DNA of 64,000 nucleotides from an uncultured candidate division Zixibacteria bacterium (GTDB taxonomy: Bacteria > Zixibacteria > MSB-5A5 > UBA10806). The notes beneath the pieces are model-generated. The model ran no database searches. It worked only from the letters and a program-made list of their open reading frames with translations, and had not been told where the DNA came from. This document shows, piece after piece, positions 2,261 to 52,601 of the stretch (positions within the stretch are counted from its first letter, which is position 1; every line of letters begins with the position of its first letter). The stretch is taken from positions 1,376,001 to 1,440,000 of the forward strand of contig CAWDFP010000006.1 of assembly GCA_963801605.1 (NCBI GenBank), read 5' to 3'. The position numbers and the translations under genes are program-made.

Positions 2261-5200
2261 ATGAATCGTTCCTCTCAATCGAAAAAATTAACAGCCATCA
2301 TCTATCTATTTATCATAATGCTCTGCGCCAATTTATCTTGGGCGGGGGCCATATTTGATGATGATGTGGAAATTCTGCAATCGGATGCCGGTGGCGTAAC
2401 TCTTCGCTATATTGTTCCGGATGCTTCAATTGTGCCTTATAGCGAGGATGGTTTTAATCTGTTGAGTATTCCCGGAACAGCACAAAATGCCAAAGAGGGT
2501 ACAATCGAAATCCCCCTCAAAATCGTACCGTTGGCTATGCCGCCCGAAGCTTCAGCGAGGATAACCGTTCAGGAATCCCAATATGCACCCATAGTTTTCC
2601 AGCAGCTGGCGCCATATTTCTCACGACCTAACTCTGACGCGCTCCATCAGGCCTATCTTCAAGCTAAACTTGCTAAGCCGATTATCCCCGATGATAAACC
2701 TTATATATCTTCCAGCGGCGTCACGCGAGGCTTGAACATTGCTCGTCTCGCGATTCCCGCAGCTCGGTATTCTCTTGAACCTCAGGAAATTTCCGTGCTA
2801 AAAAGTATGACGGTGCGCGTCGATTTCGTCGGAGGCAGTCAGAAATTCGCTGAAGGATATCGAGATCCGGGGCCGGCTTATCGACGAATGTTCGAACAAA
2901 TCATAGCTAATTATGATATCGGACGTAACTGGTATCTACCTCGTAATCTGCCATTTGCCAAAGCGGCCATAACCAGTTCGACTCCATTCGACTCCTCTGC
3001 AACCTGGATCAGGATTGAACTTACCACTGACGGTATTTATGGTTTTGGCTGGCCGCAATTTTCCATGGTTGGAATCGATCCCTTAAGTATTGACCCCACT
3101 CGTATCAGGGTATTTTATGGTGGTGGCCAGGAACTTCCTGTAGCCAATAGCCAGCCTCGACCTCAGCTAACTGAAATCCCCGTCAAAATTCTGGGCGGCG
3201 ACGATGGAAGTTTCGATAACGGAGACCTGGTTGTTTTTTATGCGGATGCGGTAGATAGTTGGCAATACTCCACGCAATTTCACAGGTTCGAACGCTATAA
3301 AGATCATTACACTGATAAAAATGTTTACTGGCTTACGTTCGATGGCGATTTCCAGGGACAGCCGCGCCGGATTGCATCCTTTGATGGGGCTCCCGATGGT
3401 CCGGTCGATATCTCAGTCGATAGCTACACCTCGGTTGCCCATAAGGAACAGGAAACGGTCTTCTGGTTTTCCGGCGATCAGGAAATGGATGAATTCGAAT
3501 GGTACTGGGGAAGAGGCTTGACGTTTTCTGTCACTTCCCAGTTGACTGATCTGGTGCCCGGCTCCGAGGCTACTGTAACTGTCAGGCATCAATATGGCGA
3601 TCCTACCTTGTCGGTAAATGGCGGCGCCCCTATTACGGGCATGCTTTATCCAACATTTGCCTTTTACAAAACTTCCGAATTCGTCGAGGGCGCCAACGGC
3701 CTTCAATTCCAATCGCCCGGCGATATGACTCTCGATTATGTTGATGTTGATTACAAGCGATGGCTTAAGGTTGTCGATGGTGTCTTGACGTTTACACAAC
3801 CGGATTCTTTTGGAACGATAAAATACACGCTTACTAATGTGAGAACGCCCTATTTTCTGTTCGATATTGGCGATAGAAATAATCCCGTTGAAATTGTAAA
3901 TGGGACTCTTGATAACGGCAATCTGGCTTTTGATGATACCGTTTCTTCTCTATCTCATAAAAGGTATTGCTTCACCAGCCGCGACAGACTGAAAAGCCCC
4001 GGAGCGGTTTCGCTCTATCAAATGGATAATCTCAGGGATGCTACCCTTTCTCAGAATCGCGCCGACGAAATTATCGTCACTTATGATGGTTTCTATGATC
4101 AGGCCGTGCGCCTCGCTCAACACCGGCAGGCCGCCAATGGTTTGACTGCCAGGGTTGTAAAAATATCCGATGTCTATAATCAATTCTCTTTCGGACTCAC
4201 CGATGCTGTCGCCATTAGAGATTTTCTCAAATACGCCTACGAAAACTGGCCCGACCCGGCCCCCAGTTTCGCCTGCTTGCTTGGCGACGGCAACTATGAT
4301 TATCGAAACTATCATGGCAACAACCTTCGCAATTATATTCCTCCCTTCGAAAATACCACTGCTATGGGGGATGAGAATTTCATTTATTTCAACAGGGATG
4401 GCTTTCTTGATTCTGATGGCAATCTCCTTCCCGATATGGTTATCGGGCGTATTAATGCCCGAAGCGCCCAGGAAGCCGATGATATTGTCAGCAAAATCGA
4501 GGATTATGATACCAATCCCGATCTTGGGCCCTGGCGGAATCGCGTGGTTATAGTCGCCGATGATAATTTGCATCCGGGTGACCCCAACGAGAGATACCAT
4601 ACCAATCCCCAGGCTGAAGCCTTAGCGAACGGACATGTCCCGGCCAAATTCGAAATCAATAAAATTTATATGGTCGATTACCTCATGGGTCCGGGAGGGG
4701 AGAAGCCCGAAGCCCGTAATGCTCTTATCAGTGCCTGGAATCAAGGCGCCTTAATTATAAACTGGATAGGCCACGGCAGCGCCAATCTTTGGGCTGATGA
4801 GCATATCTTCCGGCGCGTCGAGGATATCCCCAGGCTGACTAATGGTAAAAGGCTGCCCCTGGTTTTCACCGCCTCATGTTCTATCGGCCGTTTCGATGTT
4901 CCCAATGTCGAATGCATGGCGGAAGAGCTATTGCGCGGAAGATCGCGCGGGGCAATTTCGGTGATCTCGGCCACTCGGGATTCCTGGGCGACACCCAATC
5001 AATTCCTTAATAATTATTTCTTCGATCAAGTCCTGGTTCACGACTCGATCGGGATCGGCATGGCCTTGTACATGGCCAAATTCCTGCGCGCTAACTATGG
5101 ACAGGTAGATGACAATGATCGCCGCTATATGGTCTTTGGCGACCCTGCCCAGATTCTCCAATATCCCAAATATGATGTCAACATAACGGCCGCTCCCGAT

Positions 5201-6253
5201 ACTCTGGTCGCCCTCTCGGTAGACAGCCTGGCCGGTGAGATTACCGATGATCACGGTAATTTACAAACCGATTTCAACGGTACCGTTTGGATTACCGTTA
5301 AAGATGGAAGCGTAGTCCGTCAGGTAACCCTGAGAGACTGGCTGAATAATCCCTTACCATATCAGGTAACTTTCATCTCTCCGGGCTCAACTATATTTTT
5401 CGGGCCCGCTGATGTGGTCAACGGCCATTTCTCCAGCCGATTTTTCATCCCCAAAGATATTTCCTATGGCAGCCGAGGCGCTAAGATTTACGCCTATGCC
5501 GGCAATGGTTCGTATGATGCCGTCGGCGTAAAAGACTCGCTTGCTATCTCCGGTTCGCTTTCGACTGTTCAGGATACCGTCGGCCCGTCTGTATCGCTTC
5601 TGGTGGATGGCCGCCAGTTTGGTGACGGTGTCACCATGGTGCCTCTAAGCTTCACATTGGGGGCTGAGGTTCACGACGAGCACGGGATAAATATTACCGG
5701 ACAACTTGGGCACGGGATTGTCGCCGCAATCGATGGCGGGGAAGTTTACAGCGGGGACGTTACCAGCTATTTCCGCTATAACCAGGGCGACTATCAAAGC
5801 GGCAGGCTCGATATCAAGCTGCCCGAAATACCTGCCGGTGAACATGATATTTCCCTGAAAATCTGGGATAATTTCAATAACTCCACTCTCATCACGCGCC
5901 GTATCGAGGCAGTGGCGACCGACAAGCTGGAATTGACTGATGTTATGAACTATCCAAATCCAATTAAGGCCGGAATGTCCAGCACTGCTTTTCAGTACTG
6001 CCTCAACGATAATGTCGATCATGTGACAATAAAGTTGTTTACCGAATCGGGTAAGAAAATAAAAACTATCGATATCACCTCAGGCGATCTAACCCGGATG
6101 GATTGTAACCAGGTAAATTGGGATCTTTTGGATGCCGACGGCGACCGCCTGGCAAACGGGATTTATCTATATAAAGTTACCGCTGAGAAACGGCTCCCTG
6201 ATGGCTCAAGTGAAAATGCCGATAAAACGGGTAAACTGGTTATTCTCAGATAA
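2261..6253 (+). CDS. porU: Type IX secretion system sortase PorU-like protein (peptidase C25) with C-terminal sorting domain
   Basis: Signal peptide; IRDFLKYAY, LLGDG.YDY, IGRI; catalytic region NWIGHGS...WADE and FTASC..GRFD; GDPA; F.IPKDI; K.WD.FNN; CTD NYPNP...NGIYLYKV...KLVILR; adjacent to PorV-like gene. Confidence 0.88.
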   Translation: MNRSSQSKKLTAIIYLFIIMLCANLSWAGAIFDDDVEILQSDAGGVTLRYIVPDASIVPYSEDGFNLLSIPGTAQNAKEGTIEIPLKIVPLAMPPEASARITVQESQYAPIVFQQLAPYFSRPNSDALHQAYLQAKLAKPIIPDDKPYISSSGVTRGLNIARLAIPAARYSLEPQEISVLKSMTVRVDFVGGSQKFAEGYRDPGPAYRRMFEQIIANYDIGRNWYLPRNLPFAKAAITSSTPFDSSATWIRIELTTDGIYGFGWPQFSMVGIDPLSIDPTRIRVFYGGGQELPVANSQPRPQLTEIPVKILGGDDGSFDNGDLVVFYADAVDSWQYSTQFHRFERYKDHYTDKNVYWLTFDGDFQGQPRRIASFDGAPDGPVDISVDSYTSVAHKEQETVFWFSGDQEMDEFEWYWGRGLTFSVTSQLTDLVPGSEATVTVRHQYGDPTLSVNGGAPITGMLYPTFAFYKTSEFVEGANGLQFQSPGDMTLDYVDVDYKRWLKVVDGVLTFTQPDSFGTIKYTLTNVRTPYFLFDIGDRNNPVEIVNGTLDNGNLAFDDTVSSLSHKRYCFTSRDRLKSPGAVSLYQMDNLRDATLSQNRADEIIVTYDGFYDQAVRLAQHRQAANGLTARVVKISDVYNQFSFGLTDAVAIRDFLKYAYENWPDPAPSFACLLGDGNYDYRNYHGNNLRNYIPPFENTTAMGDENFIYFNRDGFLDSDGNLLPDMVIGRINARSAQEADDIVSKIEDYDTNPDLGPWRNRVVIVADDNLHPGDPNERYHTNPQAEALANGHVPAKFEINKIYMVDYLMGPGGEKPEARNALISAWNQGALIINWIGHGSANLWADEHIFRRVEDIPRLTNGKRLPLVFTASCSIGRFDVPNVECMAEELLRGRSRGAISVISATRDSWATPNQFLNNYFFDQVLVHDSIGIGMALYMAKFLRANYGQVDDNDRRYMVFGDPAQILQYPKYDVNITAAPDTLVALSVDSLAGEITDDHGNLQTDFNGTVWITVKDGSVVRQVTLRDWLNNPLPYQVTFISPGSTIFFGPADVVNGHFSSRFFIPKDISYGSRGAKIYAYAGNGSYDAVGVKDSLAISGSLSTVQDTVGPSVSLLVDGRQFGDGVTMVPLSFTLGAEVHDEHGINITGQLGHGIVAAIDGGEVYSGDVTSYFRYNQGDYQSGRLDIKLPEIPAGEHDISLKIWDNFNNSTLITRRIEAVATDKLELTDVMNYPNPIKAGMSSTAFQYCLNDNVDHVTIKLFTESGKKIKTIDITSGDLTRMDCNQVNWDLLDADGDRLANGIYLYKVTAEKRLPDGSSENADKTGKLVILR

Positions 6254-6289: not shown

Positions 6290-8875
6290 ATGGAGGAAAA
6301 GATGAAGTTTTACAGGCTCGTGGTCATATTAATTCTACTTTGCACCGCTGGAGCATCTGCACAGGTGGGACGCACCGGTGTGCCGTTTCTGCTGATCGCG
6401 CCGGGAGCGAGGGCGGCCGGCATGGGAGAGGCATTTATCTCGATTGCAGATGACGCCACGTCCGTGCATTGGAATCCCGCCGGATTGGGGCGCTATCCCT
6501 TAACCGGAACCTGGAAAACCCTTCAAGGCAGCGATAAAGACTCCATTCAGGCGGTTGTCTTGGTTAAAAATAACCTGCCCGAAAATAATTACCGCCAATA
6601 TGATATCTGGGGTTTGGTAAACAGTAAATTGGCCAAATGGGATGGTGTTGCCTGGACGACAGGAAGCAGGCAGCAATTGAATGCCGGTTCATCCCTAAAA
6701 TCGCTTCTGATACGCTACACCGGTTTAAGTGAGGAGGCGGCCGGACCCTATATTGATAAGCTGGCCCGTCAGAATAATCCTATCACTCCGGAGACAATCG
6801 ATTCGCTCAGGACCAGACTGACCGGCGCTCTTCCGGCAAATTACTCTTATAAAGACGAAATCGGATATGGTTTCGATAAACTCAATAAGGCCTGGCTGGA
6901 ATTGCGAATTAATCCTGTCGGAATCGACCAAATTCGCGCTGATATCAATGGCGCTTTGAAAGATTCGATTCCCTCTACGGCGAATCTCGATAAGATCGCT
7001 TTTGGATTTGATCGCGCCATTGCCTCCAAGGGAGACCGTCGTATCTGGATACCTTATGATCTTATCCTGCCCGATACCATCAACTGCGTTGGATCAGATG
7101 ATAAAAATATTTATATCGGCACAAAATCCGGATTCTTCCGCCTGGAGCCGGATAAGTTGAGATGGTCGTCATTCAGCGCTAAAGCAGATTCGATGGTATC
7201 TGACAATGTCACCGTTGTCGAAAAAGTTGGAACCCGCGTCTATGTCGGAACCGATAAGGGCATAATGAGTTTCTCCGGCCGCACTTTTAATGCCTTCGCA
7301 TCCGACGCTGGCGCTCCCAAGGGACGAATCACTGCTATCGCCGCCGATGGTGATCGCAATGTTTGGGCTTCCACTCCCACAGATCTATATCATTATGATG
7401 GGTTAAAATGGTCCAATGCTCAGGAAAAGCAATTTGGCGTCGGCCAGACTTTAATTAAGTCGACTCAAAATTTCTACGGAGAGCTTGGAGTGGTCGACAG
7501 CGCCAGAATTCTAACCGAAATCGCCAGGGCTAACGCTAATCTTGGTGACACGGTATCAGCCGGACAATCAATAAAAATGCCGTATCGCTTAGGTTATAAA
7601 GGCGAACCCACGGCTCTTGGCGTTGACCCCAAAGGGCGAGTGTGGATTGGCACCACCACCGGCATAAGCTATTTCGATGGCGAAAGTTTCCGTCTTTTCG
7701 GTTACAAACTTATCCAGGCCGATCAGCCAACGACTGTTGACGAGGTTGCCACTCGTTTTATCCCGGATCGCAATCCGGTAAAACTTCAAAAATTAGCGGC
7801 ATTGATAAAACAATATAACGGCTTGACCTCCGATTCTCTTGCGGCTGGGTCCAGAATACTCGTTTTTGCCAACGCTTTGGGAACTGAGATTAATACTATC
7901 GAGCCGATTTCTTCCAAATCGACTGTCGTGGCGACAGACCAGGGAGTGGTCGAATACGATAACGGCAAATGGGGTCGGATGCATAATAACGATTTCTCAG
8001 GCTCCAGTATCTCCAATATCTATTCGCACTCCAGGGATTTATGGGTCGGCTCGAACGATAAGGTTTCAGTCTATGCCGCGCCCAAAAAGCAAATCACATT
8101 TATGCATTCCAACTACCTGGTGCAGCTTGCCAGTGATATCTATTATGAATATTTCTCCTTCGTTCTCCCTACCAGGGATTGGGGAACGTTTGGAATGGGA
8201 GTCACTTTCCTCTCTCTGGGAAATCAGCAGAGGATGGATGAGGTCGGCAGGCCAATGGGTACTTTCTACACTTACGAAATGGCCTTGACCTTGTCTTACG
8301 GTACCAGGCTTATGAATAACGTTTACGGCGGCCTGTCGCTGCGTTATATTAATTCGCATCTATCGATTGCAGGCGCTGGACGAGAACAGGGTACCGGTAT
8401 TGGCTCTTCGGCGGCTATCGACGCTGGCGTTCTCTATGATATGAGCCGTAAAATGACCCTGGCTGCTACGGTAACAAATATCGGACCTGACATTTCTTAC
8501 ATCGACGCTGATCAGGCTGACCCGCTTCCCCGCAAGCTTGCGGTCGGTTTCAATTATAAGTTGATCGATTCCCCGTTCAATCGACTCGCGGTTATCGGCG
8601 AGGCTACCAAGCTTTTGGTCGATCTTAACCATAGCGTCAAAACCGAAATTGAAGAAATCATTCCGCATGTCGGTTTGGAATATTGGTATTCGAATTATGT
8701 AGCTCTGCGCGCCGGTTATGTTTATGACAAGGTCGGCTACCAAAAGTACGTCACACTTGGCGCTTCTCTGCAATACACCGATTACCGGTTTGATTTTGCC
8801 TATATTCCGCCAAGCAACGAAAATACCAACCGCCTGGGAAACACTATCAGGTTTTCCATGAACGTGGGGTTCTAA
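6290..8875 (+). CDS. porV: PorV/PorQ-family outer-membrane protein with large internal propeller/LysM-like insertion
   Basis: N-terminal FLLIAPGARAAGMGEA...DDATSVHWNPAGL; barrel resumes at ITFMHSNYL (~aa 600) with DAGVLY, NIGPDISY...ADPLP, GLEYWY...LRAGY; terminal Phe; start may be the ATG at 6302. Confidence 0.82.
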   Translation: MEEKMKFYRLVVILILLCTAGASAQVGRTGVPFLLIAPGARAAGMGEAFISIADDATSVHWNPAGLGRYPLTGTWKTLQGSDKDSIQAVVLVKNNLPENNYRQYDIWGLVNSKLAKWDGVAWTTGSRQQLNAGSSLKSLLIRYTGLSEEAAGPYIDKLARQNNPITPETIDSLRTRLTGALPANYSYKDEIGYGFDKLNKAWLELRINPVGIDQIRADINGALKDSIPSTANLDKIAFGFDRAIASKGDRRIWIPYDLILPDTINCVGSDDKNIYIGTKSGFFRLEPDKLRWSSFSAKADSMVSDNVTVVEKVGTRVYVGTDKGIMSFSGRTFNAFASDAGAPKGRITAIAADGDRNVWASTPTDLYHYDGLKWSNAQEKQFGVGQTLIKSTQNFYGELGVVDSARILTEIARANANLGDTVSAGQSIKMPYRLGYKGEPTALGVDPKGRVWIGTTTGISYFDGESFRLFGYKLIQADQPTTVDEVATRFIPDRNPVKLQKLAALIKQYNGLTSDSLAAGSRILVFANALGTEINTIEPISSKSTVVATDQGVVEYDNGKWGRMHNNDFSGSSISNIYSHSRDLWVGSNDKVSVYAAPKKQITFMHSNYLVQLASDIYYEYFSFVLPTRDWGTFGMGVTFLSLGNQQRMDEVGRPMGTFYTYEMALTLSYGTRLMNNVYGGLSLRYINSHLSIAGAGREQGTGIGSSAAIDAGVLYDMSRKMTLAATVTNIGPDISYIDADQADPLPRKLAVGFNYKLIDSPFNRLAVIGEATKLLVDLNHSVKTEIEEIIPHVGLEYWYSNYVALRAGYVYDKVGYQKYVTLGASLQYTDYRFDFAYIPPSNENTNRLGNTIRFSMNVGF

Positions 8876-8878
8876 ATA

Positions 8879-11800
8879 GTGTCCTTTCGCAGCCTTCGGA
8901 TAATTATTCCGGCAGTCATATTACTAATCCTGCCGGAATTAGCCTCATCTAAGGATATGATGCGTCCTATTACCTGGAAAGTTGTTCCTCAGGAAACGGA
9001 CGGGGGTAAAATCAGGCCATCATTTAAATCCGATATCTCTCAAAAAAATATTCTTGGATTGGATAGGCCAACTCCGTTTTCGCTTCCTACCGGAAAACGC
9101 GGGTTGCCCCTGTCGCTGGCGGTTTTAGAGGATACCGTCAAGGTCCTGGTGCTCAAAATAGAATTCCAGCCGGAAATACCTGACGATCCCAAAACCACCG
9201 GTATCGGCACTTTCGATATGCGTTCTTATGATGAATTTGTCGCTCAGGAACATCATTATATCGATCCCGCTCCGCATGGAACGGCTTATTTCAATTCGCA
9301 CATGGAAGGTTTGCGTCGATATTGGTATTTCGTCTCCGATAAAAAACTCGACCTTAGCTGGGATATATTTCCTCAACCGGAAAGCTCGACTTTCAGGCTG
9401 CCGGTTAAAATGTCTTATTACGGTTCCGAGGGTCCCTGGGCTGATTCCTCGGTTGCCGACAAGTTGGGGCATTTTCTAATCGACGCTATCACTTTTGCCG
9501 ACTCGGCCGCTCCGGAGATAGATTTTTCGCAATACCAGGCGATAATAATCTTCCATGCCGGCTCGGATCAGCAAAATAATTTCGCATTTATCAACGATAC
9601 TCCCGATGATTTTTATACCGGGTTCATCAGACTGGCCGAACCGGTTATCGTCGACAACGGAGCGTTTCAGGTAAGTGAAGCTTTGCAGGTGCCGGAGACT
9701 GAAAGCCAGGATAATCGCATCACAGCTCTGAATGGCGTTCTGGCGCATGAGTTCGGACATCAACTTGGGCTGGTTGACCTGTATGACACCTATAATTTCA
9801 TGACACAGATCGGCGATTTCTCGCTGATGGATAATAACGGCATGTCTGTGGGTGTCGAATTCGACAGCATCTCATCATCTGTTGGTGGCACTATTCCGGT
9901 TTATCCCGACGCCTGGTCGCGGGCCTATCTGGGTTTTGATGTGCCCAAAGTTGTGTCACGCATGGGGGGAGAATCCGTCAGCGCGGCCGTCCTCAATTAT
10001 TCCGAAAGCGAAATTGTCAAAGTCCCTATAACGGATTTTGAATATTACCTGATCGAAAACAGGCAGCAGGTAAATCATGAAACTGCCCTCATTGCTGATC
10101 ACCAAACGGGTGTAATTTTAGGTCCGGGATATTTAGATAACGAAGGCCTGTTGGTTGCCAACGGCGAATACGATCTCTTCTGCCCCGGCAACGGTATGCT
10201 GATCTGGCATATCGATGAATATCCGGCTTATCAAAATTATACGGGATCTCCCGATAACAACTTCTTCACCAATACTCTTCAATGGGATAAAGATCGTCGC
10301 TTTGTGTCTCTGGTCGAGGCCGACGGCGTGGTCGATTTTGGAGGCAACTATTACCGTGGCTACGGCGATCAAAACGATTTCTTCAGGGCTGGCGGCCCCA
10401 CAGCCATGACTCCTTTTACTCGTCCACCCTCGCGAACCAATCTGGGCGCCGATTCCCATGTATTTATCACCAACGTTTCCGCTTCCGATACCATCATGAC
10501 AGTCGATATCGATAACAACTGGCTCTTGCCCGGCTGGCCGCAGATGAGTCGTCCAGCGGCCATGTCTGATCCAATTATTACCGATGTTGGCGCGCTGGGC
10601 TCTAATGCGGTCGTAATGGCCGGCGGAAATCAGCTTTTGGCCTGGCGATTCGATGGCAGCAAAATTATCCCTAATTACGACTCAATTGGTTTCATGCGTT
10701 ATGACAGCAGTATCGCCGTTTACCCCTTAGCGGTGATAGCTGATTGCAATACCGATATCGTTGGCCGTCCGGTCGCGGTTGATTTCGATGGTGACGGTAT
10801 CAACGAGCTTGCGGCCGTCACAACTACTGGACGACTTTATGCAGTTAGGGCCGCTGACGATGACCACGATGGCCGCGGCGACGCCCTAACCGGATTCCCA
10901 TATCAAATTGGCGCTGGAGTCACGCTTCCGCCGATTGCCGTTAATTTTCTGGCGCGGCCCGGTCAGCAGCTTCTTGTATTCCGTAGTTCCGAAGTCCATC
11001 TGATTTATTCCAATCCTCCGGATTCGTTACCGGTCGATAGTCTGATTTTTGCATGGGAATATGACTTTCCTTCCGCGTCCGCTTATAGCGTTGCCGGAAA
11101 AAATGTAGTAGATCTGATTGAACGCGAAAGGTTTGGACATATTATCAGGATGACTGCTGATTCTGGCGCGGTTAATTTTCAGCAGGCGTTTAGGGCCTCA
11201 TATTATGACCCCGCGAAATATCTGATCTCAGGCGATGTCAGCCGTAGCGGCGGAATGCCGGATATCGTGCTCGTAAGCGGTCGAACTGTGCGGCTTATTG
11301 GAGCGGATGGCGCTCTTAAATGGGCTGTAGATATCCGCGATGAACTCGGCCGCCCGGCGCTGGGCGATATCAATTCGGATGGTTTCCCGGAAGTTGTCGT
11401 TGCCGGCAATGCGAAAATTTACGCTATTTCCTACAATGGCGTTATGCTTGATAATTTCCCCATCAATATGCGGCTATATGATACCAGTGGCATCCCGGAT
11501 ACGTCCGCCATTACATCCCCTCCGATATTGGGAGATGTTGACGGTGACGACAATCCCGATATCATCATTGGTCTGCCGGCTGGCTCTATCTATGCGTTCA
11601 ATTATCACGCCGATAAACTTTCAGGTTTCCCGCTTCCCAGTTCATTTGGGATATCGCGAGCTTGTGCCCTGGGCGATATCAACGCCGATGGCAGGATCGA
11701 TCTGGTCACCGTGGAAAATCCCGGTTTTGTCAAAGCCTGGGCGATAGATACATCGTATATTGCCGCTGATGTCCCCTGGGGCAATTCGGGCGGCACTCCT

Positions 11801-12136
11801 GGCAACAGTGGTTACCTCAACCCCATTTATGAAAAACCGATGGTCAGCGCTGATCTCCAACTTCCTGAAAATTCCGTATTCAACTATCCAAACCCGGCCA
11901 GAAACACTACCACCATCAGGTACTACCTTAACAGCGATTCCCGGGTAAATATCGATATATTTGATTTCATGGGGGAGAGGGTTCACGATATCCAACTTGC
12001 CGGGTTGGGTCATGTTTCGAACGAATATGTTTGGGACTGCAGCAGTGTGGCATCCGGAATATATTTTTGCCGTGTCGAGGCTGTAAATGACACTGGCAAG
12101 AACTGGCGGATGATTAAAATTGCGATTGCAAAATAA
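8879..12136 (+). CDS. M6 (immune inhibitor A-like) metalloprotease with FG-GAP repeats and T9SS CTD
   Basis: IFHAG, HEFGHQLGLVDLY, FSLMD, EYYLIENR, GMLIWHIDE; GD.N.DG FG-GAP repeats; CTD FNYPNP...ASGIYF...KIAIAK. Confidence 0.85.
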   Translation: MSFRSLRIIIPAVILLILPELASSKDMMRPITWKVVPQETDGGKIRPSFKSDISQKNILGLDRPTPFSLPTGKRGLPLSLAVLEDTVKVLVLKIEFQPEIPDDPKTTGIGTFDMRSYDEFVAQEHHYIDPAPHGTAYFNSHMEGLRRYWYFVSDKKLDLSWDIFPQPESSTFRLPVKMSYYGSEGPWADSSVADKLGHFLIDAITFADSAAPEIDFSQYQAIIIFHAGSDQQNNFAFINDTPDDFYTGFIRLAEPVIVDNGAFQVSEALQVPETESQDNRITALNGVLAHEFGHQLGLVDLYDTYNFMTQIGDFSLMDNNGMSVGVEFDSISSSVGGTIPVYPDAWSRAYLGFDVPKVVSRMGGESVSAAVLNYSESEIVKVPITDFEYYLIENRQQVNHETALIADHQTGVILGPGYLDNEGLLVANGEYDLFCPGNGMLIWHIDEYPAYQNYTGSPDNNFFTNTLQWDKDRRFVSLVEADGVVDFGGNYYRGYGDQNDFFRAGGPTAMTPFTRPPSRTNLGADSHVFITNVSASDTIMTVDIDNNWLLPGWPQMSRPAAMSDPIITDVGALGSNAVVMAGGNQLLAWRFDGSKIIPNYDSIGFMRYDSSIAVYPLAVIADCNTDIVGRPVAVDFDGDGINELAAVTTTGRLYAVRAADDDHDGRGDALTGFPYQIGAGVTLPPIAVNFLARPGQQLLVFRSSEVHLIYSNPPDSLPVDSLIFAWEYDFPSASAYSVAGKNVVDLIERERFGHIIRMTADSGAVNFQQAFRASYYDPAKYLISGDVSRSGGMPDIVLVSGRTVRLIGADGALKWAVDIRDELGRPALGDINSDGFPEVVVAGNAKIYAISYNGVMLDNFPINMRLYDTSGIPDTSAITSPPILGDVDGDDNPDIIIGLPAGSIYAFNYHADKLSGFPLPSSFGISRACALGDINADGRIDLVTVENPGFVKAWAIDTSYIAADVPWGNSGGTPGNSGYLNPIYEKPMVSADLQLPENSVFNYPNPARNTTTIRYYLNSDSRVNIDIFDFMGERVHDIQLAGLGHVSNEYVWDCSSVASGIYFCRVEAVNDTGKNWRMIKIAIAK

Positions 12137-19788: not shown

Positions 19789-20628
19789 ATGAAGAACCTC
19801 TTGCGCTGGCCCGCTCTCTGCCGCCCTCTGAACTGCCTGATCACCTTTCTATCCGTCTGGGTTGGGGCCGTGGTCGCGGGTCAGGTATATTTCTCAAATC
19901 GAATATTAGCCGCCTCGCTTTCAGCCGCGCTTATCACAGCTTATGGAAATATCGTCAACGATCTTTTCGATATCAAAGCCGATAGCATCAATAAACCTGA
20001 TCGTCTGTTGGCAGGCGGAATTGTAGACAAATCAACTGCAATCGTGCTCGCCATTTTGTTTGCTTTATTTGGATTCGCCTTGTCATTTACCGTCGGCAAT
20101 CGAGGTTATCTTATCGCCCTTTTGACAATCATCCTTCTTCTCTTCTATACCCCGATATTCAAGGGTAAAAGCTATCTTGGCAATATCCTCGTGGCTGCGG
20201 TATCGGCTCTGGCATTCATTTATGGGGGAATGGCGGTCGATAAGCCCTTTGGCGCCTTTTTCCTGATAATTTTTGCCTTTCTGCTTCATCTGGGCAGAGA
20301 GATTGTTAAAGATATTCAGGACACAATCGCCGATCTGATAGTGGGGCATCGGACCGGCGCAACTATTGCTAACGGCAACTGTTCGCGCGTCCTGGCATCG
20401 CTCATTCTGGCACTCCTGATCGCCACGACCTTCGTGCCATACTTCCTCCACATCTATGGCCTTGGATATCTGATAGTCGTAATCGCAGTCGATCTAGTTC
20501 TCGCCGAGTCTATCAACCGCCTGATCATCTCCGGAAAAGAAGACGCTGCCCGTCGCGTTTCCCGCTGGCTCAAGTTAGCTATGCCTTTAGGTTTGCTTGC
20601 TGTACTCCTCGGACGGTTAGGATTGTAA
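19789..20628 (+). CDS. UbiA-family prenyltransferase, DGGGP-synthase-like
   Basis: RP.N, GN.VND.FD...D.INKPDR.L..G, YT...K....GN..VA, REIVKDIQD...D; multi-TM. Confidence 0.82.
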   Translation: MKNLLRWPALCRPLNCLITFLSVWVGAVVAGQVYFSNRILAASLSAALITAYGNIVNDLFDIKADSINKPDRLLAGGIVDKSTAIVLAILFALFGFALSFTVGNRGYLIALLTIILLLFYTPIFKGKSYLGNILVAAVSALAFIYGGMAVDKPFGAFFLIIFAFLLHLGREIVKDIQDTIADLIVGHRTGATIANGNCSRVLASLILALLIATTFVPYFLHIYGLGYLIVVIAVDLVLAESINRLIISGKEDAARRVSRWLKLAMPLGLLAVLLGRLGL

Positions 20629-20812: not shown

Positions 20813-21187
20813 ATGATAAAAATAAACTCAAGAATCATCGGCTTTTTATTTGTGATCGCTATCGGCCTCTTCGTTATTGCTGGATGTGGCAGTAGCAGCA
20901 AGTCCACCAATCCGCCGCCCCCGCCGACTCATTCGGCTCATTTCCATGATGTTTCTATCGCAAATTTCGCCTATTCACCGGCTACCCTCACGATCGCTGT
21001 CGGGGATACTGTTTTATGGACCAATAATCAAAACGTCCAACATACTGTGACCTCTGATACCGGTACCGAGTTGTCGGGAGACCTCGCTGCCGGAGCTACC
21101 TATCAGCACATTTTTGGAACGGCCAACGTATACCCTTATCATTGCGCGATTCACCCCACAATGCATGGATCGGTAACTGTACAATGA
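20813..21187 (+). CDS. Cupredoxin (plastocyanin/amicyanin-like) lipoprotein
   Basis: IAGC lipobox; type-1 Cu ligands HTVT...YHCAIHPTM. Confidence 0.85.
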   Translation: MIKINSRIIGFLFVIAIGLFVIAGCGSSSKSTNPPPPPTHSAHFHDVSIANFAYSPATLTIAVGDTVLWTNNQNVQHTVTSDTGTELSGDLAAGATYQHIFGTANVYPYHCAIHPTMHGSVTVQ

Positions 21188-21287
21188 TAGGTTATAAAAT
21201 ATCATTTTGAGGAATAGGGGCGCGTGGATATCACTCGCCCCCATTTAAGAAATATGACACTTAATAATATCAAAGCGAAGGAGGGTT

Positions 21288-21923
21288 ATGATGAAAGTTC
21301 TACAGTCTGCTTTCATGAGCCTGCTATTGATGACCGTGATGCTGTTTCTCGTTCCTATCGACGCATATTCCACGGTGCATCAAATTGCCATGCAGGATTT
21401 CTTTTTCTCACCGAGAAATACAGTCGTTAGCCCCGGCGATACCGTCCGGTGGTCCAACTCCAGCCTGGCGCCCCATACCAGTACGGGTGATACTCGCATC
21501 TGGAGTTCCGGTGTTGTTAATCCCGGGGCATCTTACTCCCGTCAATTTCTCACGCCGGGCGTTTTTGCCTATCAATGCAGTATTCATGTTTTAATGGGAA
21601 TGCGCGATACTATTCACGTCTCATCCGTTGGTATTGATGATCCCCAGTCTGCAATTCCGAGCGCTTACGAATTAGCTCAAAACTATCCCAATCCATTCAA
21701 CGCCCAAACCACCATTCAATACGATTTGCCGTCCGATGCCGATGTTACCATCACGGTTTTTGATATTCTTGGCCAGAAGCTGGAGACTCTTGTTGACGAG
21801 CATCAGGATGCCGGCCATCATCAGATCGCCTGGGACGCTGCTGATCAACCGTCAGGCATTTATTTCTATAAGATTCAAGCCGGGGATTTCTCTCAAACCA
21901 AACGGGCCACGCTGCTGAAATAA
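21288..21923 (+). CDS. Cupredoxin domain protein with T9SS CTD
   Basis: Signal peptide; PHTST...YQCSIH..MGM; CTD AQNYPNPFN...SGIYFYKI...TKRATLLK. Confidence 0.85.
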   Translation: MMKVLQSAFMSLLLMTVMLFLVPIDAYSTVHQIAMQDFFFSPRNTVVSPGDTVRWSNSSLAPHTSTGDTRIWSSGVVNPGASYSRQFLTPGVFAYQCSIHVLMGMRDTIHVSSVGIDDPQSAIPSAYELAQNYPNPFNAQTTIQYDLPSDADVTITVFDILGQKLETLVDEHQDAGHHQIAWDAADQPSGIYFYKIQAGDFSQTKRATLLK

Positions 21924-24944: not shown

Positions 24945-25029
24945 CAATACCTCCAATACAAACATAAGACAGGTTGGGGGAGGGAGCAAGGGGATTTGGC
25001 AGGCATCTTTAGTCATGTACCTGTCATAT

Positions 25030-25754
25030 GCCTCATGATGAAAAGCCTCTGACATCCTGAGGCGTAAAATATAGGTTACTGATAGGTTTGGTTTGTTCTC
25101 TTATCTCTTGATATTCGCTTAAAGTAATTCTCCTTTCGTCATATTGTCAGTTTGTCAAAGGTTTCTCGGAACTCGACCTACGATCTTCTGTTTTCAAATC
25201 CCCTTATTGTAAGGGGGCGGTCCCGGGACCAATTATCCCGCCAAAAATACGGCGGGTAAACCCTTTACAAGGTGGGACCTGCCCTAACCGTCGCCGCAAT
25301 ATTTCCGTCGCTCCGAAGAAGTCTTACTGACCTTCCTCATTGCGAAGGAGGGCGGTGACAGCCGACTCCGAGGGGAGTCCGGAGGACCCCCGATGGGTCC
25401 TAAGAGGACAGCCACCAAGTGGGAAGGTTTTGTGGCCACAATCATCCTTCCACTTATATAGCCCTTAGAAATCAAAATGCACTTTGAACGCGTTTTCGGG
25501 GCTTTGTAAGAGCGAAAAGGGTGTTTATCAAAATGAGCCCCCACGGAGAGAGAGGGGATTTTTCGGTTTTGTGAATTTGAGGGAAAAGTACTCTGATTTG
25601 GGATGGTGTCGGGTTGCCTGACCCGACACCAAAAAGAATCCGGTCATTGCGAGGAGGCCCATTTGGGCCGACGAAGCAATCCCCCTGCAAAAAGCGTCTT
25701 ATGTTATAAATGACGAGGTAGGGATGGGGATTGCTTCGCTTCGCTCGCAATGAC
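25030..25754. repeat. Dense non-coding cluster of heterogeneous palindromes
   Basis: 25030-25063; family A at 25160-25181; GGTGTCGGGT/ACCCGACACC (25605-25630); inverted pair GTCATTGCGAG...GAAGCAATCCC (25643-25683) / GGGATTGCTTC...CTCGCAATGAC (25727-25754). Confidence 0.8.
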
Positions 25755-25813
25755 ACGTCTGCGTAAGATGCCCCCGCAAAAGGCTATAGCGGACCAGATA
25801 GCCACTATTTTTG

Positions 25814-25842
25814 TTGACGATAATATTATATTTGTTTATAAT
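25814..25842 (+). promoter_or_regulatory. Putative sigma70 promoter of the AT-rich cassette
   Basis: TTGACG, 17-bp spacer, TATAAT, ~100 bp before the ATG at 25941. Confidence 0.6.
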
Positions 25843-25940
25843 CCTATTACAAAGCCAATCCTGATGTAATGGTGATGAATGTGTTATGTTCAATAAATAT
25901 TGAGTATGAATATTTTTTTTATTACCAATAGGAGAAATCA

Positions 25941-27007
25941 ATGAGTACGGAAGCCAAAGCATTTGTGTTAATGTCTTTTCAGCCAGAATTTAAATCGATT
26001 TATGAAAAATTAATTAAACCTACGTTGGAGGAGGTTGGCTATTTAGTTGAAAGGGCAGATAGTATATTGGATAGAAAGAATATTCTAAAGGATATTATTG
26101 AACGAATAGCGGTAGCGGATTTAATTGTAGCCGATTTAACATCAGTCAACCCCAATGTACTATATGAACTTGGTATATGTCACGGGCTTAGAGTTCCTAC
26201 TGTTATGATTGCACAGTCAATTGATGAGGTTCCTTTTGATCTGCGAGGTTATAGAATCGTTGTATATTCTAAAGAATTTGACGAAGTAGAAAAATTTATA
26301 AATGAACTTAAAAGCATTGCTCAAGGTCGAATAAACCAAACAGTATCATTTGAAAGCCCAATAACTGACCATTTTGCCAAAATGGAAATATCTAATAATG
26401 CCAATGATATTAAAATGTCTGAAGCTTTAAATAGTTTAGATGAATTAGAGGAAGAAGGTTTCCTTGATCTTTGGTGAGGTTAGAAGGCAATACAAAAATA
26501 ATGGAATTTAATTTGAGCACTATTACAGAAGCAACGCTTGAAATAGGGCAGAAAATTGATATGCGTGCCGCGGAGATAAATGAAGTTGTTGGTAAACCCG
26601 GTCCAGGGAGCGCATCAGCATTGCATAAAATATCAAATTCTACTGCTAACGACCTGATTCAATATTCTGATAAAATGGAAGGAGCTATACCGAAATTTGA
26701 ATCAGATATGGAATTATTGCTAGATACATTTTCAGCGGGCGTTAAAATATTAAAAACACTACCATCTGTAAATCCCGAATCAGTTACTCAATTTAAGGCA
26801 TCTATTTTTGAATTCATGGAAGCATCGGCCACAACGCTAAAAAGCATAAAAGGATTTAAGGAAATAATGTCTAATACTAAGGGAATCTCAAAAGCGATGA
26901 ACAGGGGTATATCCCAAGTAATCAAATCCCTTGATAAGATTATTACAGTTATGGAGAAATCTGAAGCGTATTTAGCAAGGATAGCCACTTCTTTGAATGG
27001 TATGTAA
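25941..27007 (+). CDS. Nucleoside 2-deoxyribosyltransferase-like (NDT/Rcl-like) domain plus helical C-terminal region; probably one gene with a frameshift near 26470
   Basis: AFVLMSF, ERAD, ADLIVADLT..NPNVLYELG, PFDLR; ORFs 25941-26477 and 26471-27007 join as GFLDLLVRLE if one T is added to the T-run at 26470-26472; visibly AT-rich. Confidence 0.72.
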
Positions 27008-27116
27008 TGGGGCGGCAAGCCTATTGGCTTTCCCTTCAATCGCGATTGGAGGGGCAGACATTGATGTCCACCAGCCACAAAACAATAGCACATATTACCT
27101 TTAAAATCGAGGCATT

Positions 27117-27599
27117 ATGGAAGAAACTCATGAACTAAAACTTGATCCGGAACATCAAGGGAATAAACCCTATTATGCAATATGCAATGAAGCTAGTGAG
27201 CTTTTAGAAAAAGTTGATAAGCTACATTTAGGATTAGATAAAATAAAAATGCCTAAATTATTTCCATTTAGGGCTAACAAGCAATTAACAAATCTTAAAA
27301 AGGAGATTAATAAAATCATCCCGGATGTAAACAATTTTTGGATTAAAGCCAAAAAATTCACAGAGCAACCTTCCTTTTATGTCACTTATCGCGCCGATGC
27401 CCCGCTTGATCAAGTAGTTGGATATTTTCATTTTTCACTATTATTATTAAATAGAATTACCACGCTTGAAAATATTGTTAATAATACTGTTCGCGATTTA
27501 CAATCTTTTTCCTTAAGGATAGATGGTGTTAAATCCCTATTTTGGGCATTACTTTTCTTTACTTTTAGCATTATTGTTACAATTATCATATCAGCTTAA
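27117..27599 (+). CDS. Hypothetical helical protein with C-terminal TM helix
   Basis: GAGG before ATG; AT-rich; C-terminal LFWALLFFTFSIIVTIII. Confidence 0.7.
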   Translation: MEETHELKLDPEHQGNKPYYAICNEASELLEKVDKLHLGLDKIKMPKLFPFRANKQLTNLKKEINKIIPDVNNFWIKAKKFTEQPSFYVTYRADAPLDQVVGYFHFSLLLLNRITTLENIVNNTVRDLQSFSLRIDGVKSLFWALLFFTFSIIVTIIISA

Positions 27600-27652
27600 A
27601 GATAGCGATTTTGTGCCACAAGAAACGCTTAGCGACAAACGCTAACCGGTTT

Positions 27653-27940
27653 GTAGCCGGAGAACCCCGCGGTCTCCGGTTTTTATTTTTCGGGAGGCAT
27701 TCAAACTCCTTCCTCAGCCCCCCCCCCCGCCCCCCAGCATACCACCCCCTTGCCAGCACTTCTGAAGACCTATTAAATAATGCGTCAGGTCTCGGATGCC
27801 TAAGACCTGACGCAACCGTAGACGGATACTTGACATCCCCCACCGTCCCCCTATATCTTTGCCACCTTTAGGGTTCGATGTTTTTGGGCGGTCCAGATGG
27901 CCCCATAAATGAGTGAATCGGCAGACGAGGGCGTCTGCCG
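27653..27940. repeat. Palindrome cluster at the right edge of the accessory patch
   Basis: GTAG-CCGGAGA...TCTCCGG (27653-27679); TGCGTCAGGTCT...AGACCTGACGCA (27781-27814); CGGCAGACG-AGGG-CGTCTGCCG (27919-27940). Confidence 0.8.
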
Positions 27941-28041
27941 CGCAGGACCAGGAACAAAGACGGAGTTTTCGCTGTATAATCGACCTGAAAATGGTTGAAT
28001 AAATGGACCGGGGTCGAACATGACGACCAGGGAGGTTTTTA

Positions 28042-48486: not shown

Positions 48487-48568
48487 GCGGAAGTGGCGGA
48501 ACTGGCAGACGCGCCATCTTGAGGGGGTGGTGCCGAAAGGCGTGAGGGTTCAAGTCCCTCCTTCCGCA
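48487..48568 (+). tRNA. tRNA-Leu (anticodon GAG), CCA not encoded
   Basis: GCGGAAG/CTTCCGC acceptor stem, D arm GCGGAACTGGCAGACGC, anticodon arm CCATC-TTGAGGG-GGTGG, long variable arm, GGGTTCAAGTCCC T arm. Confidence 0.95.
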
Positions 48569-48580
48569 GATAAAGATATA

Positions 48581-48620
48581 TCCCGCAAGTCGTTGTAAGA
48601 CTTGCGGGAATCTTATTTTC
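48581..48620 (+). terminator. Hairpin/terminator after tRNA-Leu
   Basis: TCCCGCAAGTC/GACTTGCGGGA 11-bp stem followed by a T-rich tail. Confidence 0.65.
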
Positions 48621-48741
48621 TGGGAGCACTTACAGTGTTTTTCTCAGATTTTAAGTCAGTATATCTACCAATAACTTACAACGAATTTATAGGCATATAT
48701 GTAACAGTCACAAAATAAGAATGTCCATAGACGGGTAAAAA

Positions 48742-48931
48742 AGACGGATAGAAGCCGTCTCAGGCTGTTAACAATTAGTCATTTCGAGAATTGTTGCTTG
48801 CAAGAGTATATTTCCCTATTGATTAAAGTGTAGGGGCGTATTGCAATACGCCCCTACAATAAAATAATTAAATTTCGAATGGGATAAATCTATGACTTTG
48901 TAAACAATCTCAGACGGATAGAAGCCGTCTC
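48742..48931. repeat. 20-bp direct repeat enclosing a perfect 30-bp GTAG palindrome
   Basis: AGACGGATAGAAGCCGTCTC at 48742 and 48912; TGTAGGGGCGTATTGCAATACGCCCCTACA at 48829-48858. Confidence 0.85.
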
Positions 48932-48979
48932 TTTTTCGGGTGGAGCAACGCATATGCCAATTGGTATCCCATTGAGATT

Positions 48980-49460
48980 CTAGTAGGGGAGAAGATTGAT
49001 TTTTTCGCGGTTCACATCGGGGGCATGGTAAGCGTAAATGAGCGTTGACTGAATATCGGAATGCCCCATCCACGCTTGGATATCTCGAATCGGCACTCCC
49101 GATGCAAGGGTATACGTTCCAAACGTACGACGCAAGTCGTTCAGTTTGTCTAATTGCCCAAGTTTTTGTAATTATCTCTGGTAAGCTAATGACAATTCCT
49201 GTGGCCTGTGGTACTTAATGGTTACCCCTTCTTTTTTGCTTCTGGGAAGTGCCCATGAATCCTTGAGCACATTGGTTTGCTTGAGAATTTTAGCCAGCTG
49301 ATGACTCAGGGGGATCGTACGTGGCCGCTTACCTTTGGAAGTATAGCTGCGATCGGACCGTATTTTTATTTCCATCTTCTTGAAATCGATGTCCGACATT
49401 TTTAATTCAACCATTTCAGATCTTCGCAAACTAGAATATACTCATAATCCAATCAGCCTC
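48980..49460 (-). pseudogene. Tyrosine recombinase/integrase remnant (catalytic domain only)
   Basis: One frame reads LRRSE...L...DIDF...SKGKRPRTIPL, in-frame TAA (49172-49174), then NDLRRTFGT...GVPIRDIQAWMGHSDIQSTLIY, TAG at 48980; a further stop upstream and no N-terminus. Confidence 0.88.
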
Positions 49461-49532
49461 TTAATATATGGCGAAGCGGCTGTCATCAGGAGCCTTTGGG
49501 AAGTCGACAGCAGGGTATGGTAAGCCTCGAAA

Positions 49533-49670
49533 TCAATTTGGTTTTCCACTGCCGGGTACCGAAGCGTTCTTAGATTGCTTCTCCTGCTTTCTCAATGTCT
49601 CCTGGCCCTGTTTATCTAACTTTTGTTTTTGGCTCTTGTTCTTATCCTTTTTCCCGCCTTTGTCTCCCAT
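49533..49670 (-). CDS. 45-aa Lys/Gln-rich small protein (MGDKGGKKDKNKSQKQK...), missed by the ORF track
   Basis: AAGGAG 7 nt before the ATG at 49670; TGA at 49533-49535. Confidence 0.65.
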   Translation of the reverse strand: MGDKGGKKDKNKSQKQKLDKQGQETLRKQEKQSKNASVPGSGKPN

Positions 49671-50044
49671 TTCGTGACTCCTTTCAATTTACCATTTTCC
49701 CTCTTACTGAGGAGGGCATTAGCCGCACCATAGATTTAAGGCGGCTAATCTGCATCGTATTTAAGGCCATTAGTATAAATTACAATAATTATCTATAATA
49801 TTATAGCCCGCCAATTAATTAGTGTCAACCAGAATCAAGGTAAATGGTCGAGTTGGCGGTTCGAGTTTGATGTCTATTGCTGCCATATTATTTGTACTAA
49901 GGCAATTCATTTTCAACTTGACGAATTAGGCTTTTTTTTGCTAATCTTGGCATTCGTAATACCCGCTTGCCCCGCTGTTATAATGGTAGGGGTGTCGCGG
50001 CGGCCAGAACATTAACGCCTAGACGGTTGTGGAGGCACAATCGA

Positions 50045-50716
50045 ATGTCGAAAATCAGAGTACTGCTGATCGAAGATAACCGCCTTCTACGAGAAGGCAT
50101 AGAAGCCATGCTCAACGAGCAGGAGGATATCAGGGCACTTTCGGCCGCCGGGAATGGTGATGCCTTTGAAAAAGCGGAGAAGCTCAATCCACATGTCGTC
50201 CTCCTGGATCTTGGTCTCAGGAGCCAAAACAGCCTAAAGGTGGTAGGACACATCAGGAAGAAGTTTCCCGGGACAGAGGTGGTCGTGATGGATCTTATTC
50301 CCGTGCATGCCGAGGTCATTGAATTCGTGAAAGCCGGTGTTTCGGGCTTCATTCTCAAAGACGCCACTCTCGATGATTTTCTGCATACCATCAGGTCAGT
50401 TGCGAAAGGGAAAAAAGTTCTTCCGCCACCATTAACCGATTCGCTCTTTTCCCATATTGTCGAGCACGCTGTCCAGGCGGGTAAAGTAGACGAACTAATC
50501 GAGTCGGTTAAGTTGACTAAAAGGGAACAGGATGTAATAGATCTGATAGCCCTTGGCCGAAGCAATAAGGCAATCGCCTCGGAACTTAATATCGCTATCC
50601 ATACAGTCAAAAGCCATGTGCATAATATTCTCGAAAAGCTGGCCCTGCATACGCGTCTTGAATTGGCCAGTTTCGCTCATACCAAAAACACAAATATCGA
50701 TAACTCTGAACGGTAA
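50045..50716 (+). CDS. NarL/FixJ-family response regulator (REC + LuxR HTH), paralogue 1
   Basis: ATG at 50045 after GGAGG; IEDN, VVLLD, GFILKD, LTKRE..V, SNK.IA..L.I...TVKSH. Confidence 0.9.
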   Translation: MSKIRVLLIEDNRLLREGIEAMLNEQEDIRALSAAGNGDAFEKAEKLNPHVVLLDLGLRSQNSLKVVGHIRKKFPGTEVVVMDLIPVHAEVIEFVKAGVSGFILKDATLDDFLHTIRSVAKGKKVLPPPLTDSLFSHIVEHAVQAGKVDELIESVKLTKREQDVIDLIALGRSNKAIASELNIAIHTVKSHVHNILEKLALHTRLELASFAHTKNTNIDNSER

Positions 50717-50747
50717 CCTAAGAACCGTAAGTAGAAATCAATCAAAG

Positions 50748-50857
50748 GGATTAGACCCTTTTTCAATCCTTAGAGCGATTGACCCAATTTTAAATCTTTA
50801 TATAATAGGTCCATAGATATGTACCGTTTTCCGGAAGACTAAAAGGGGGCTTCCGGA
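50748..50857 (+). promoter_or_regulatory. Conserved island promoter module, copy 1
   Basis: CCCTTTT-TCAATC-CTTAGAGC-GATTGA overlapping -35 TTGACC (50779), 16 bp, TATAAT (50801), AGGTCCATAGA, then a GGAAG/CTTCC hairpin. Confidence 0.8.
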
Positions 50858-50961
50858 GAACTGAATTTTCATGAAGTTTGATTCATGAAGAGGCGAACTC
50901 GGCGAGGGGACAATCAATTAAGGGACGAGTTAGAATATTATTGTGTGGTGATGAGGTTATC

Positions 50962-51075
50962 ATGAAAACCCTGAAGGAGATTACCGTCGAGTTAGACTTG
51001 CTTTTTGCAAGGCTGTTCAACATGGACGATAAGGTAGAAATGCTGGAACAGCAAATTGGGGGAGTATCAGTCTGA
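50962..51075 (+). CDS. Short helical/coiled-coil ORF; may continue to ~51168 via a frameshift in the G5 run at 51058-51062
   Basis: GAGG before ATG; first ORF after promoter copy 1; the shifted frame reads EYQSDYLEELDNSKAEQKQ... Confidence 0.35.
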   Translation: MKTLKEITVELDLLFARLFNMDDKVEMLEQQIGGVSV

Positions 51076-52056: not shown

Positions 52057-52089
52057 TACCAAAGAATCAAATTCGCAAGGGGGCAATCT

Positions 52090-52471: not shown

Positions 52472-52539
52472 GTTGGAAATATAAGCCTTAGTTGCAATAG
52501 AATATTCAATGCGCAAATACATAATATTTGGATAATTAA

Positions 52540-52566: not shown

Positions 52567-52601
52567 AATAATTCCATCTATGTGAGTGAAATTACATGCT
52601 G

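Follow-up and report, generated by a model that had tools for sequence, protein, structure and literature searches.

We find that Zixibacteria carry a long form of PorV, 861 aa as an open reading frame, in which an insert of 529 aa separates the hatch from the barrel. This long PorV is a real, phylum-wide and new variant of the protein; its function we infer. It is encoded in the window analyzed here, the whole stretch of 64,000 nucleotides from an uncultured Zixibacteria bacterium (assembly GCA_963801605.1, contig CAWDFP010000006.1, positions 1,376,001 to 1,440,000). The initial annotation, made from the letters of the window, had read the gene as a PorV with an inserted propeller bearing LysM-like modules, and possibly part of a variant type IX secretion system (T9SS). 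Family scans, a fold model and a genome survey agree with that reading. The features are as follows.

6290 to 8875, + strand: long PorV gene; 861 aa as the listed reading frame, 857 aa if the start is at 6302
6302 to 6361, + strand: predicted Sec signal peptide, read by eye from the sequence; ends in ASA before Gln25; helix 2-19 in the model
6362 to 6496, + strand: PorV N-terminal hatch (plug) with the NPA motif, aa 25-69
6497 to 8083, + strand: insert, aa 70-598, predicted to be periplasmic; seven-bladed Reg_prop-type propeller with three LysM-type modules
6662 to 7054, + strand: LysM-like module 1, aa 125-255, with a helical bundle set into it
6779 to 7024, + strand: four-helix bundle inside module 1, aa 164-245, assigned to no family
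7418 to 7582, + strand: LysM-type module 2, aa 377-431; profile matches in the PDB
7703 to 7867, + strand: LysM-type module 3, aa 472-526; profile matches in the PDB and an hhalign match to module 2
8084 to 8875, + strand: 14-stranded PorV barrel, aa 599-861, with a terminal Phe and long outer loops
2261 to 6253, + strand: porU, the T9SS sortase (C25 peptidase with a C-terminal CTD), directly 5' of the long PorV gene
8879 to 12136, + strand: M6-like metalloprotease whose type A CTD lies at 11858-12133; a conserved downstream neighbor

Translation probably starts at Met5 (6302), as in the database protein of 857 aa. The adjacency to porU that had been pointed out is seen in the window and recurs among related loci, with porU directly 5' of the long PorV gene in 77 of 80; the other three have fewer than 450 bases upstream. 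The porU reading frame scores 700.6 bits on NF033707 (cut-off 420), and the GHG...SC motif is present in 63 of 66 long PorU reading frames. An M6-like protease lies on the 3' side in 70 of the 80 loci (371 bits on NF052323, below the cut-off of 600; 38 bits on Por_Secre_tail). DUF5683 genes are found nearby in 53 and 51 of the 80 loci, and an NHL protein and a 1089-aa barrel in 41 each, all of these counts being bounded by locus length.

Both general PorV models recognize the 861-aa protein in two stretches, Pfam PorV (PF19572) with 82.7 bits against a cut-off of 27 and NCBIfam PorV_fam (NF033709) with 237 bits against a cut-off of 90. The PorV equivalog model NF033710 gives 184 bits in three stretches, below its cut-off of 250. 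A search for further porV genes, which the initial annotation had proposed, returned seven other PorV_fam genes over the cut-off in this genome, and these reach only 27-87 bits on NF033710. Among 61 genomes searched, 36 passed E 1e-25 on NF033710, and in 35 of these the best match was a frame of 811-1070 aa. Barrels of Bacteroidota PorV match the long forms at E 5e-19 to 2e-7, compared with 4e-5 or worse for the paralogues. We therefore file the long PorV as the positional counterpart of PorV, working like PorV and standing outside NF033710 membership. The long forms cluster in a tree of 20 barrels (94/92), and the same 20 rows gave no resolution on a sister relation between the long forms and Bacteroidota PorV. 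Submitters titled several records Ignavibacteria or other taxa, and one row of this kind falls among the Zixibacteria rows of the tree.

An alignment with the annotated PorV of P. distasonis (400 aa), that of Emticicia and two short paralogues shows about five linker residues joining the NPA hatch to barrel strand 1 in those proteins, where the long PorV has its insert. The N-terminal motif ends with WNPAGL at aa 61-66 and barrel sequence restarts with ITFMHSNYL at about aa 602-610, much as first read. The accompanying claim that the two segments are nearly adjacent in an ordinary PorV of less than half this length is likewise borne out by the short linker and by the P. distasonis protein. Thus, the hatch-to-strand-1 linker is an insertion site that PorV tolerates. 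The hatch itself is the most conserved part of the protein, at 3.6 bits per column (103 sequences).

An AF2 model built from 46 sequences (pLDDT 80, pTM 0.77) has 14 strands in residues 601-861 and a well-predicted insert, which forms a single seven-bladed propeller (aa 72-598). The hatch is uncertain in this monomer, with pLDDT below 50 for residues 13-69. Read from the strand list, the blades span residues 86-123, 264-295, 307-335, 349-375, 440-470, 534-563 and 574-596, with a closing strand at 74-79, and three insertions occupy interblade linkers (125-255, 377-431 and 472-526). The propeller-type blades claimed at the outset are thus found both in this seven-bladed ring and as a Reg_prop match of 29 bits on the insert. 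Two propellers were also considered and are ruled out by the one ring seen with AF2 and VIA-align. The top rank in VIA-align was PorV 6h3i_F (Z 25.0, rmsd 3.6), with 282 residues aligned over model positions 31-861, which is more than the barrel part by itself. The best propeller row had Z 22.9 and rmsd 2.5 over 259 aligned residues, and other single seven-bladed propellers gave Z 21-23. Foldseek ranked 8gl6_F first and 6h3i_F second, followed by two-component sensor propellers; PorZ (5m11) stood at rank 26. Structure searching and modeling of the insert, both suggested in the initial annotation, thus return a propeller fold in a protein that aligns with PorV, and the models contain the hatch and 14-stranded barrel that define PorV membership (the 6h3i_F alignment; hatch residues 26-36 at the CTD site).

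Three LysM-type modules are present, the upper figure of the two to three first counted. In the 861-aa protein itself, Pfam LysM (PF01476) gives 13.6-15.7 bits, under the cut-off of 20.9, and we therefore call the modules LysM-type. Among relatives, 46 of 74 inserts give a match to the Pfam model at E <= 0.1, the best one at 2.6e-13, and two relatives exceed the cut-off (L112 with 48 bits, L111 with 39.9). A profile of module 2, built from 47 of the 74 sequences (excluding the 27 that have long additions), matched LytE (E 8.7e-11) and 4uz2 (5.6e-7) in the PDB; a profile of module 3, from 73 of the 74, matched 4uz2 (E 5.1e-9), then 4xcm and LytE. These top matches come from cell-wall enzymes that bear LysM. 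Homology links modules 2 and 3 (hhalign probability 98.9%), and the first half of module 1 aligns with module 3 at a probability of 95%. Module 1 of this protein (aa 125-255), folded alone, reaches pLDDT 91.8; in relatives that lack the bundle (P0214, L115) the module is unsplit. The modules follow a beta-alpha-alpha-beta pattern with the motif G[DE]xL...N.L...L..G..[IL] and about nine extra residues between the helices. LysM chains were absent from the structure search lists of both the whole model and module 1. Note that propellers and bundles filled these lists, so that the LysM assignment rests on profiles and secondary structure.

The number of modules varies. Of 135 long proteins, 100 have three, 27 two, six one and one four, so that 134 have at least one; none was detected in the last (P0231). 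The profiles behind these counts were built from a set that overlaps the 135 proteins, and shuffled sequences gave no matches. Module 2 is missing in P0150 and module 3 in L067, whereas additional copies occur in the same kind of linker in L112 and the forms of about 1050 aa, and in tandem in L111. Within this genome, the module profiles matched the long PorV gene and one reading frame with four LysM copies only. The modules are net acidic and among the least conserved parts (1.75-1.98 bits, compared with 2.0-2.3 for the blades). In 27 of 74 relatives, module 2 is extended to 64-155 aa by long, low-complexity additions. The helix bundle in module 1 (aa 164-245) has a confident fold and is retained in most of the phylum; its fold has no match that rises above background, VIA reaching at best Z 5.5 to generic bundles and Foldseek giving no matches at E <= 0.001. 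The module 2 additions and the module 1 bundle lie near the loop that we take to be part of the LysM groove.

The insert is predicted to lie below the membrane, on the periplasmic side. In the modeled barrel (601-861), short turns follow even strands and long loops follow odd ones. The last strand of an outer-membrane barrel ends in the periplasm. A barrel of 14 strands that ends in Phe would therefore have its strand 1 start in the periplasm, and the insert precedes strand 1. All LysM-type modules sit in d-to-a blade linkers and the termini of the insert lie at the c-to-d position, by strand order. These two positions are on opposite faces of a propeller, which would turn the modules toward the wall and away from the membrane.

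The long PorV was modeled in complex with the CTD of the downstream M6-like protease as test cargo, alongside three controls. The complex scored 0.67 (best control 0.00), with runs agreeing in at least 90% of contacts and a partner pLDDT of at least 83, and it passed a mark that 116 of 157 solved pairs reach, as do 2 of 215 mismatched ones. A similar complex, 8gl6, is already solved, so this pass may reflect memory of that structure; it shows likeness and not binding. The confident CTD contacts fall on the hatch (26-36) and six outer loops (609-617, 643-661, 689-703, 735-745, 813-818 and 848-849), and none involve the insert. The outer loops are thus predicted to bind type A CTDs. The topology model and cargo multimer that the initial annotation recommended therefore place the insert in the periplasm and the CTD on the outer loops and hatch.

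Within the phylum, the long PorV with its insert is the usual version of this gene. A survey of relatives had been proposed as a check, and the insert proved to be present nearly throughout, matching 283 of the 285 genomes, among them all 198 good ones. Since generic propellers may have inflated this count, a second count used the family-specific module 1 together with the bundle, which matched 270 of the 285 genomes and 191 of the 198 good ones (none of three in family f19). Querying with the insert returned about 50 full-length relatives, PorV domain included. Together with the 80 loci and the 283 genomes, these rule out an assembly chimera. The nearest named relatives are Zixibacteria, which are also the sole taxon in cluster look-ups among entries with a taxon given. 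The metagenome scan gave one full-length relative (L115) among 80 loci. A Bacteroidota PorV query against proteins of 701-2000 aa found two unrelated fusions and missed all the known long forms, so that its outcome carries no information on other phyla. Distant inserts across the phylum share 23-30% identity, and the insert family has invariant Trp, Gly and Asn positions. Outside the long-PorV family, the nearest sequences are mostly Reg_prop sensor proteins.

The core of the T9SS is present in this genome: the SprA translocon (717 bits), the PorU sortase (701 bits) and CTD cargo (105 CTD matches). SprA was found in all 61 genomes searched. According to PMC11285876, other FCB phyla may have a T9SS. 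GldK, GldL, GldM and GldN were each found in 0 of 61 genomes by searches that were equally silent in control genomes and two Bacteroidota plasmid records (for GldK, at E <= 1e-30 only). No genome of the 61 had PorP over the cut-off, and no motor-like gene was found beside sprA in this genome. None of the four of five OmpA-domain matches read in this genome is PorE-like: three are barrel-plus-OmpA proteins and one is Pal, and the fifth frame, at 244 aa, is too short for PorE.

A separate porZ, for which a search had also been advised, is general in the phylum. The available PorZ models proved too weak to show this (Pfam PorZ by itself marks 25 of 101 genomes, and NF052228 is not over its cut-off in this genome); a Zixibacteria PorZ-like query recovered a full-length PorZ-like gene from all 101 genomes. 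Four examples score 125-178 bits on NF052228, three of them over almost the full model length, and the gene follows an lnt-like gene (named from sequence) in the six loci read. In this genome, frameshifts break the copy, on contig C9, into pieces.

On balance, we favor a peptidoglycan-tethered PorV that resembles PorE in role. The barrel would still take CTD cargo at SprA and present it to PorU. The chain would exit the hatch on the periplasmic side, fold into the propeller and re-enter as strand 1, the prediction being that the hatch occupies the barrel while the outer loops keep their grip on cargo CTDs. Beneath the barrel, the propeller would clamp peptidoglycan through its LysM-type modules and in this way hold the barrel to the wall. 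PorV would then be fixed in place, for example in a SprA-PorV-PorU station, instead of diffusing freely as a shuttle. Judged by sequence, the LysM-type modules are likely to bind peptidoglycan, and the insert argues against free PorV diffusion. The glycan-binding PorV proposed in the initial annotation thus survives in part: binding at the cell surface falls away, and binding in the periplasm, most likely of peptidoglycan, stands as the putative activity. The variability and net acidity of the modules, and the scores of this protein's own copies below the Pfam cut-off, weaken the case for a strong binding role. In PMC5562754, PorV is a shuttle moving by diffusion, while PMC10994853 and PMC12365241 describe a PorV carrier that is pulled off SprA by a motor-driven ring. 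A fixed PorV is at odds with the latter model, as given in PMC10994853.

The main alternative, somewhat unlikely, is that the insert serves as a periplasmic docking platform or force handle, binding periplasmic parts of SprA or an energizer (e.g., of TonB/Tol type) that replaces GldKLMN, with LysM folds repurposed for protein binding. Release of cargo from PorV is an energy-requiring step in PMC10994853, so something must act on PorV, and the Gld and PorP searches found nothing in genomes that nonetheless all have SprA, with 105 CTD matches in this one. The variable, acidic modules and the widely kept bundle would also suit such a platform. However, no candidate partner emerged, whether beside sprA or otherwise, and the Gld searches had no positive control, such that divergent motors may have been missed. 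Varying LysM copy number also fits avidity for a polymer better than a fixed protein interface. Docking and wall binding are compatible, and both may hold.

Alternatively, the insert could serve as a spacer or help folding, acting as a strut in the periplasm that stabilizes the barrel or envelope, with degenerate LysM folds and no specific part in secretion. The low identity of distant inserts, the optional bundle and modules, and the long low-complexity additions to module 2 are what a strut would allow. We nevertheless regard this as quite unlikely given that the insert is kept in 283 of 285 genomes, and on one paralogue only, with invariant Trp, Gly and Asn positions and repeated gain of modules.

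Even less probable is that the propeller senses or carries glycans in the periplasm (fragments of the wall, or a lipid-linked sugar) and gates PorV, having arisen from two-component sensor propellers. The nearest structures after PorV are indeed the sensor domains BT4673, BT4663 and BT3049, in keeping with the Reg_prop sensor proteins among the nearest sequences. Known sensors, however, are far longer and multi-domain, with signaling outputs, whereas the long PorV has a single propeller and lacks an output domain, and a common fold speaks to origin and not to function.

PorZ works at the cell surface, as a CTD-bearing cargo that delivers A-LPS to PorU. The functional PorV/PorZ fusion proposed in the initial annotation, which would have a surface propeller bring an LPS-type glycan to PorU, is very improbable and we reject it: the gene adjoins porU, PorZ appears in the fold search, the insert has a weak NF052228 match (20.5 bits over 70 residues) and PF21544 is found in 4 of 74 inserts, but that match is not full length, the insert has one propeller and no CTD, the modeled topology is periplasmic and contradicts a surface location, and every genome of the 101 has a separate PorZ-like gene.

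Returning to the wall-tethered PorV, it is possible, though not probable, that Zixibacteria have a heavily used T9SS that operates without GldKLMN, in which the wall-anchored PorV replaces motor and ring, either as a fixed station from SprA to PorU or as the handle of another energizer. If this reading is true, it would represent a second, and possibly older, way of operating the T9SS. This phylum, with a PorV counterpart that bears a 58-kDa periplasmic domain of wall-binding type and with no motor recovered by the searches, suggests that secretion can be completed in another way. We found no literature on type IX secretion in Zixibacteria, in a search with supplements and most subscription papers outside its scope. 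Judged by titles and the beginnings of abstracts, none of the papers found describes a PorV with LysM, and PMC7323717 and PMC8542988 yielded nothing relevant.

The long PorV can be compared with several known proteins. Like PorV of Flavobacterium johnsoniae (6h3i_F, 8gl6_F), it has an NPA hatch, a 14-stranded barrel and long outer loops, and its gene is the next one after porU, an order shared with the P. distasonis record. Unlike Bacteroidota PorV, it carries 529 aa at the hatch-to-strand-1 linker, measures 861 aa in place of about 400, falls below the NF033710 cut-off and occurs in genomes where GldKLMN searches (run without a positive control) found none. Sensor propellers (BT4673, BT4663, BT3049) share the Reg_prop blades and are the best non-PorV Foldseek matches; here, a single propeller is mounted on an outer-membrane barrel with no kinase or output domain. 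The LysM domains of LytE (8i2e) and of 4uz2 and 4xcm share the beta-alpha-alpha-beta pattern and motif, and differ from the modules described here, which have about nine extra residues between the helices, are set in propeller linkers and include one copy split by a bundle. PorZ (5m11, NF052228) has Reg_prop-type blades and belongs to the same secretion system; unlike the insert, it is a surface cargo with a CTD and is encoded by a separate gene in this phylum. The closest analogy in role is PorE (PG1058) of Porphyromonas gingivalis, which in PMC7192894 and PMC12204202 combines a periplasmic propeller with a peptidoglycan-binding domain and is put forward as a wall anchor for the T9SS. Both pair a periplasmic propeller with a domain of wall-binding type, an analogy for which we claim no homology. 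PorE is a separate lipoprotein (TPR, WD40 and CRD domains plus an OmpA_C-like one), of whose domain set only the propeller is shared by the long PorV, whereas in Zixibacteria the putative anchor lies inside the barrel protein itself.

The long PorV, with its propeller and LysM-type modules, varies in length across the phylum. Locus reading and module profiles identified five longer forms:

L107:9930-13097, longer form
L108:8859-11996, longer form
L109:8406-11558, longer form
L112:8501-11260, longer form
L111:6765-9713, longer form

Forms of ~1050 aa, found in families f3, f11 and f12, carry the LysM-plus-bundle unit twice. The L112 protein has one additional copy of module 3, located past the first strand, and in L111 module 3 is repeated in tandem. 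Shorter forms, of 754-818 aa (L115:7953-10346 and the relative proteins P0107, P0150, P0214 and P0231), lack the helix bundle or module 2. The L115 gene sits in the same order as in the window, porU-porV-M6-DUF5683, and this locus may originate from a different lineage.

Family scans and locus comparison also delimited what follows porU-porV-M6:

window:12178-19788, conserved operon tail, 3' of porU-porV-M6

This tail is conserved phylum-wide and may be a source of periplasmic partners. It encodes two DUF5683 proteins, an NHL-propeller protein that may carry a lipobox, an Omp85/POTRA protein and a 1089-aa outer-membrane protein, whose similarity to SprA is weak and short (aa 273-325). Next in the window is a UbiA-family prenyltransferase gene (19789-20628); its best NCBIfam matches include archaeal-type geranylgeranylglycerol-phosphate geranylgeranyltransferase models, all below cut-offs. 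A pair of small cupredoxin-like genes lies at 20813-21923, and a type A CTD is encoded by the second gene. GC falls to 0.38-0.43 at 25000-28000 and 48500-53000, where long ORFs are sparse.

Elsewhere in the same genome, numerous genes at contig C9:8000-20000 (L098), the PorZ-like gene among them, are in frameshifted pieces, which probably reflect sequencing indels rather than true gene loss. A whole-genome search gave 105 Por_Secre_tail matches in 3.06 Mb, and genome searches run without a positive control found no GldKLMN; T9SS signal use is very heavy for a genome in which GldKLMN was not found.

This genome encodes further PorV-family barrels:

L093:7808-9625, 606-aa barrel with a C-terminal TPR extension
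L089 (contig C11), short paralogue
L090 (contig C6), short paralogue
L091 (contig C7), short paralogue

The TPR extension would likewise be periplasmic, and similar frames of 607-640 aa were seen in further genomes. The short paralogues lie in cassettes with genes that, as read from sequence, encode a TonB-dependent-receptor-like protein, a CTD protein and a lipoprotein. This content suggests that the short paralogues could serve as dedicated anchors of SusCD-like systems.
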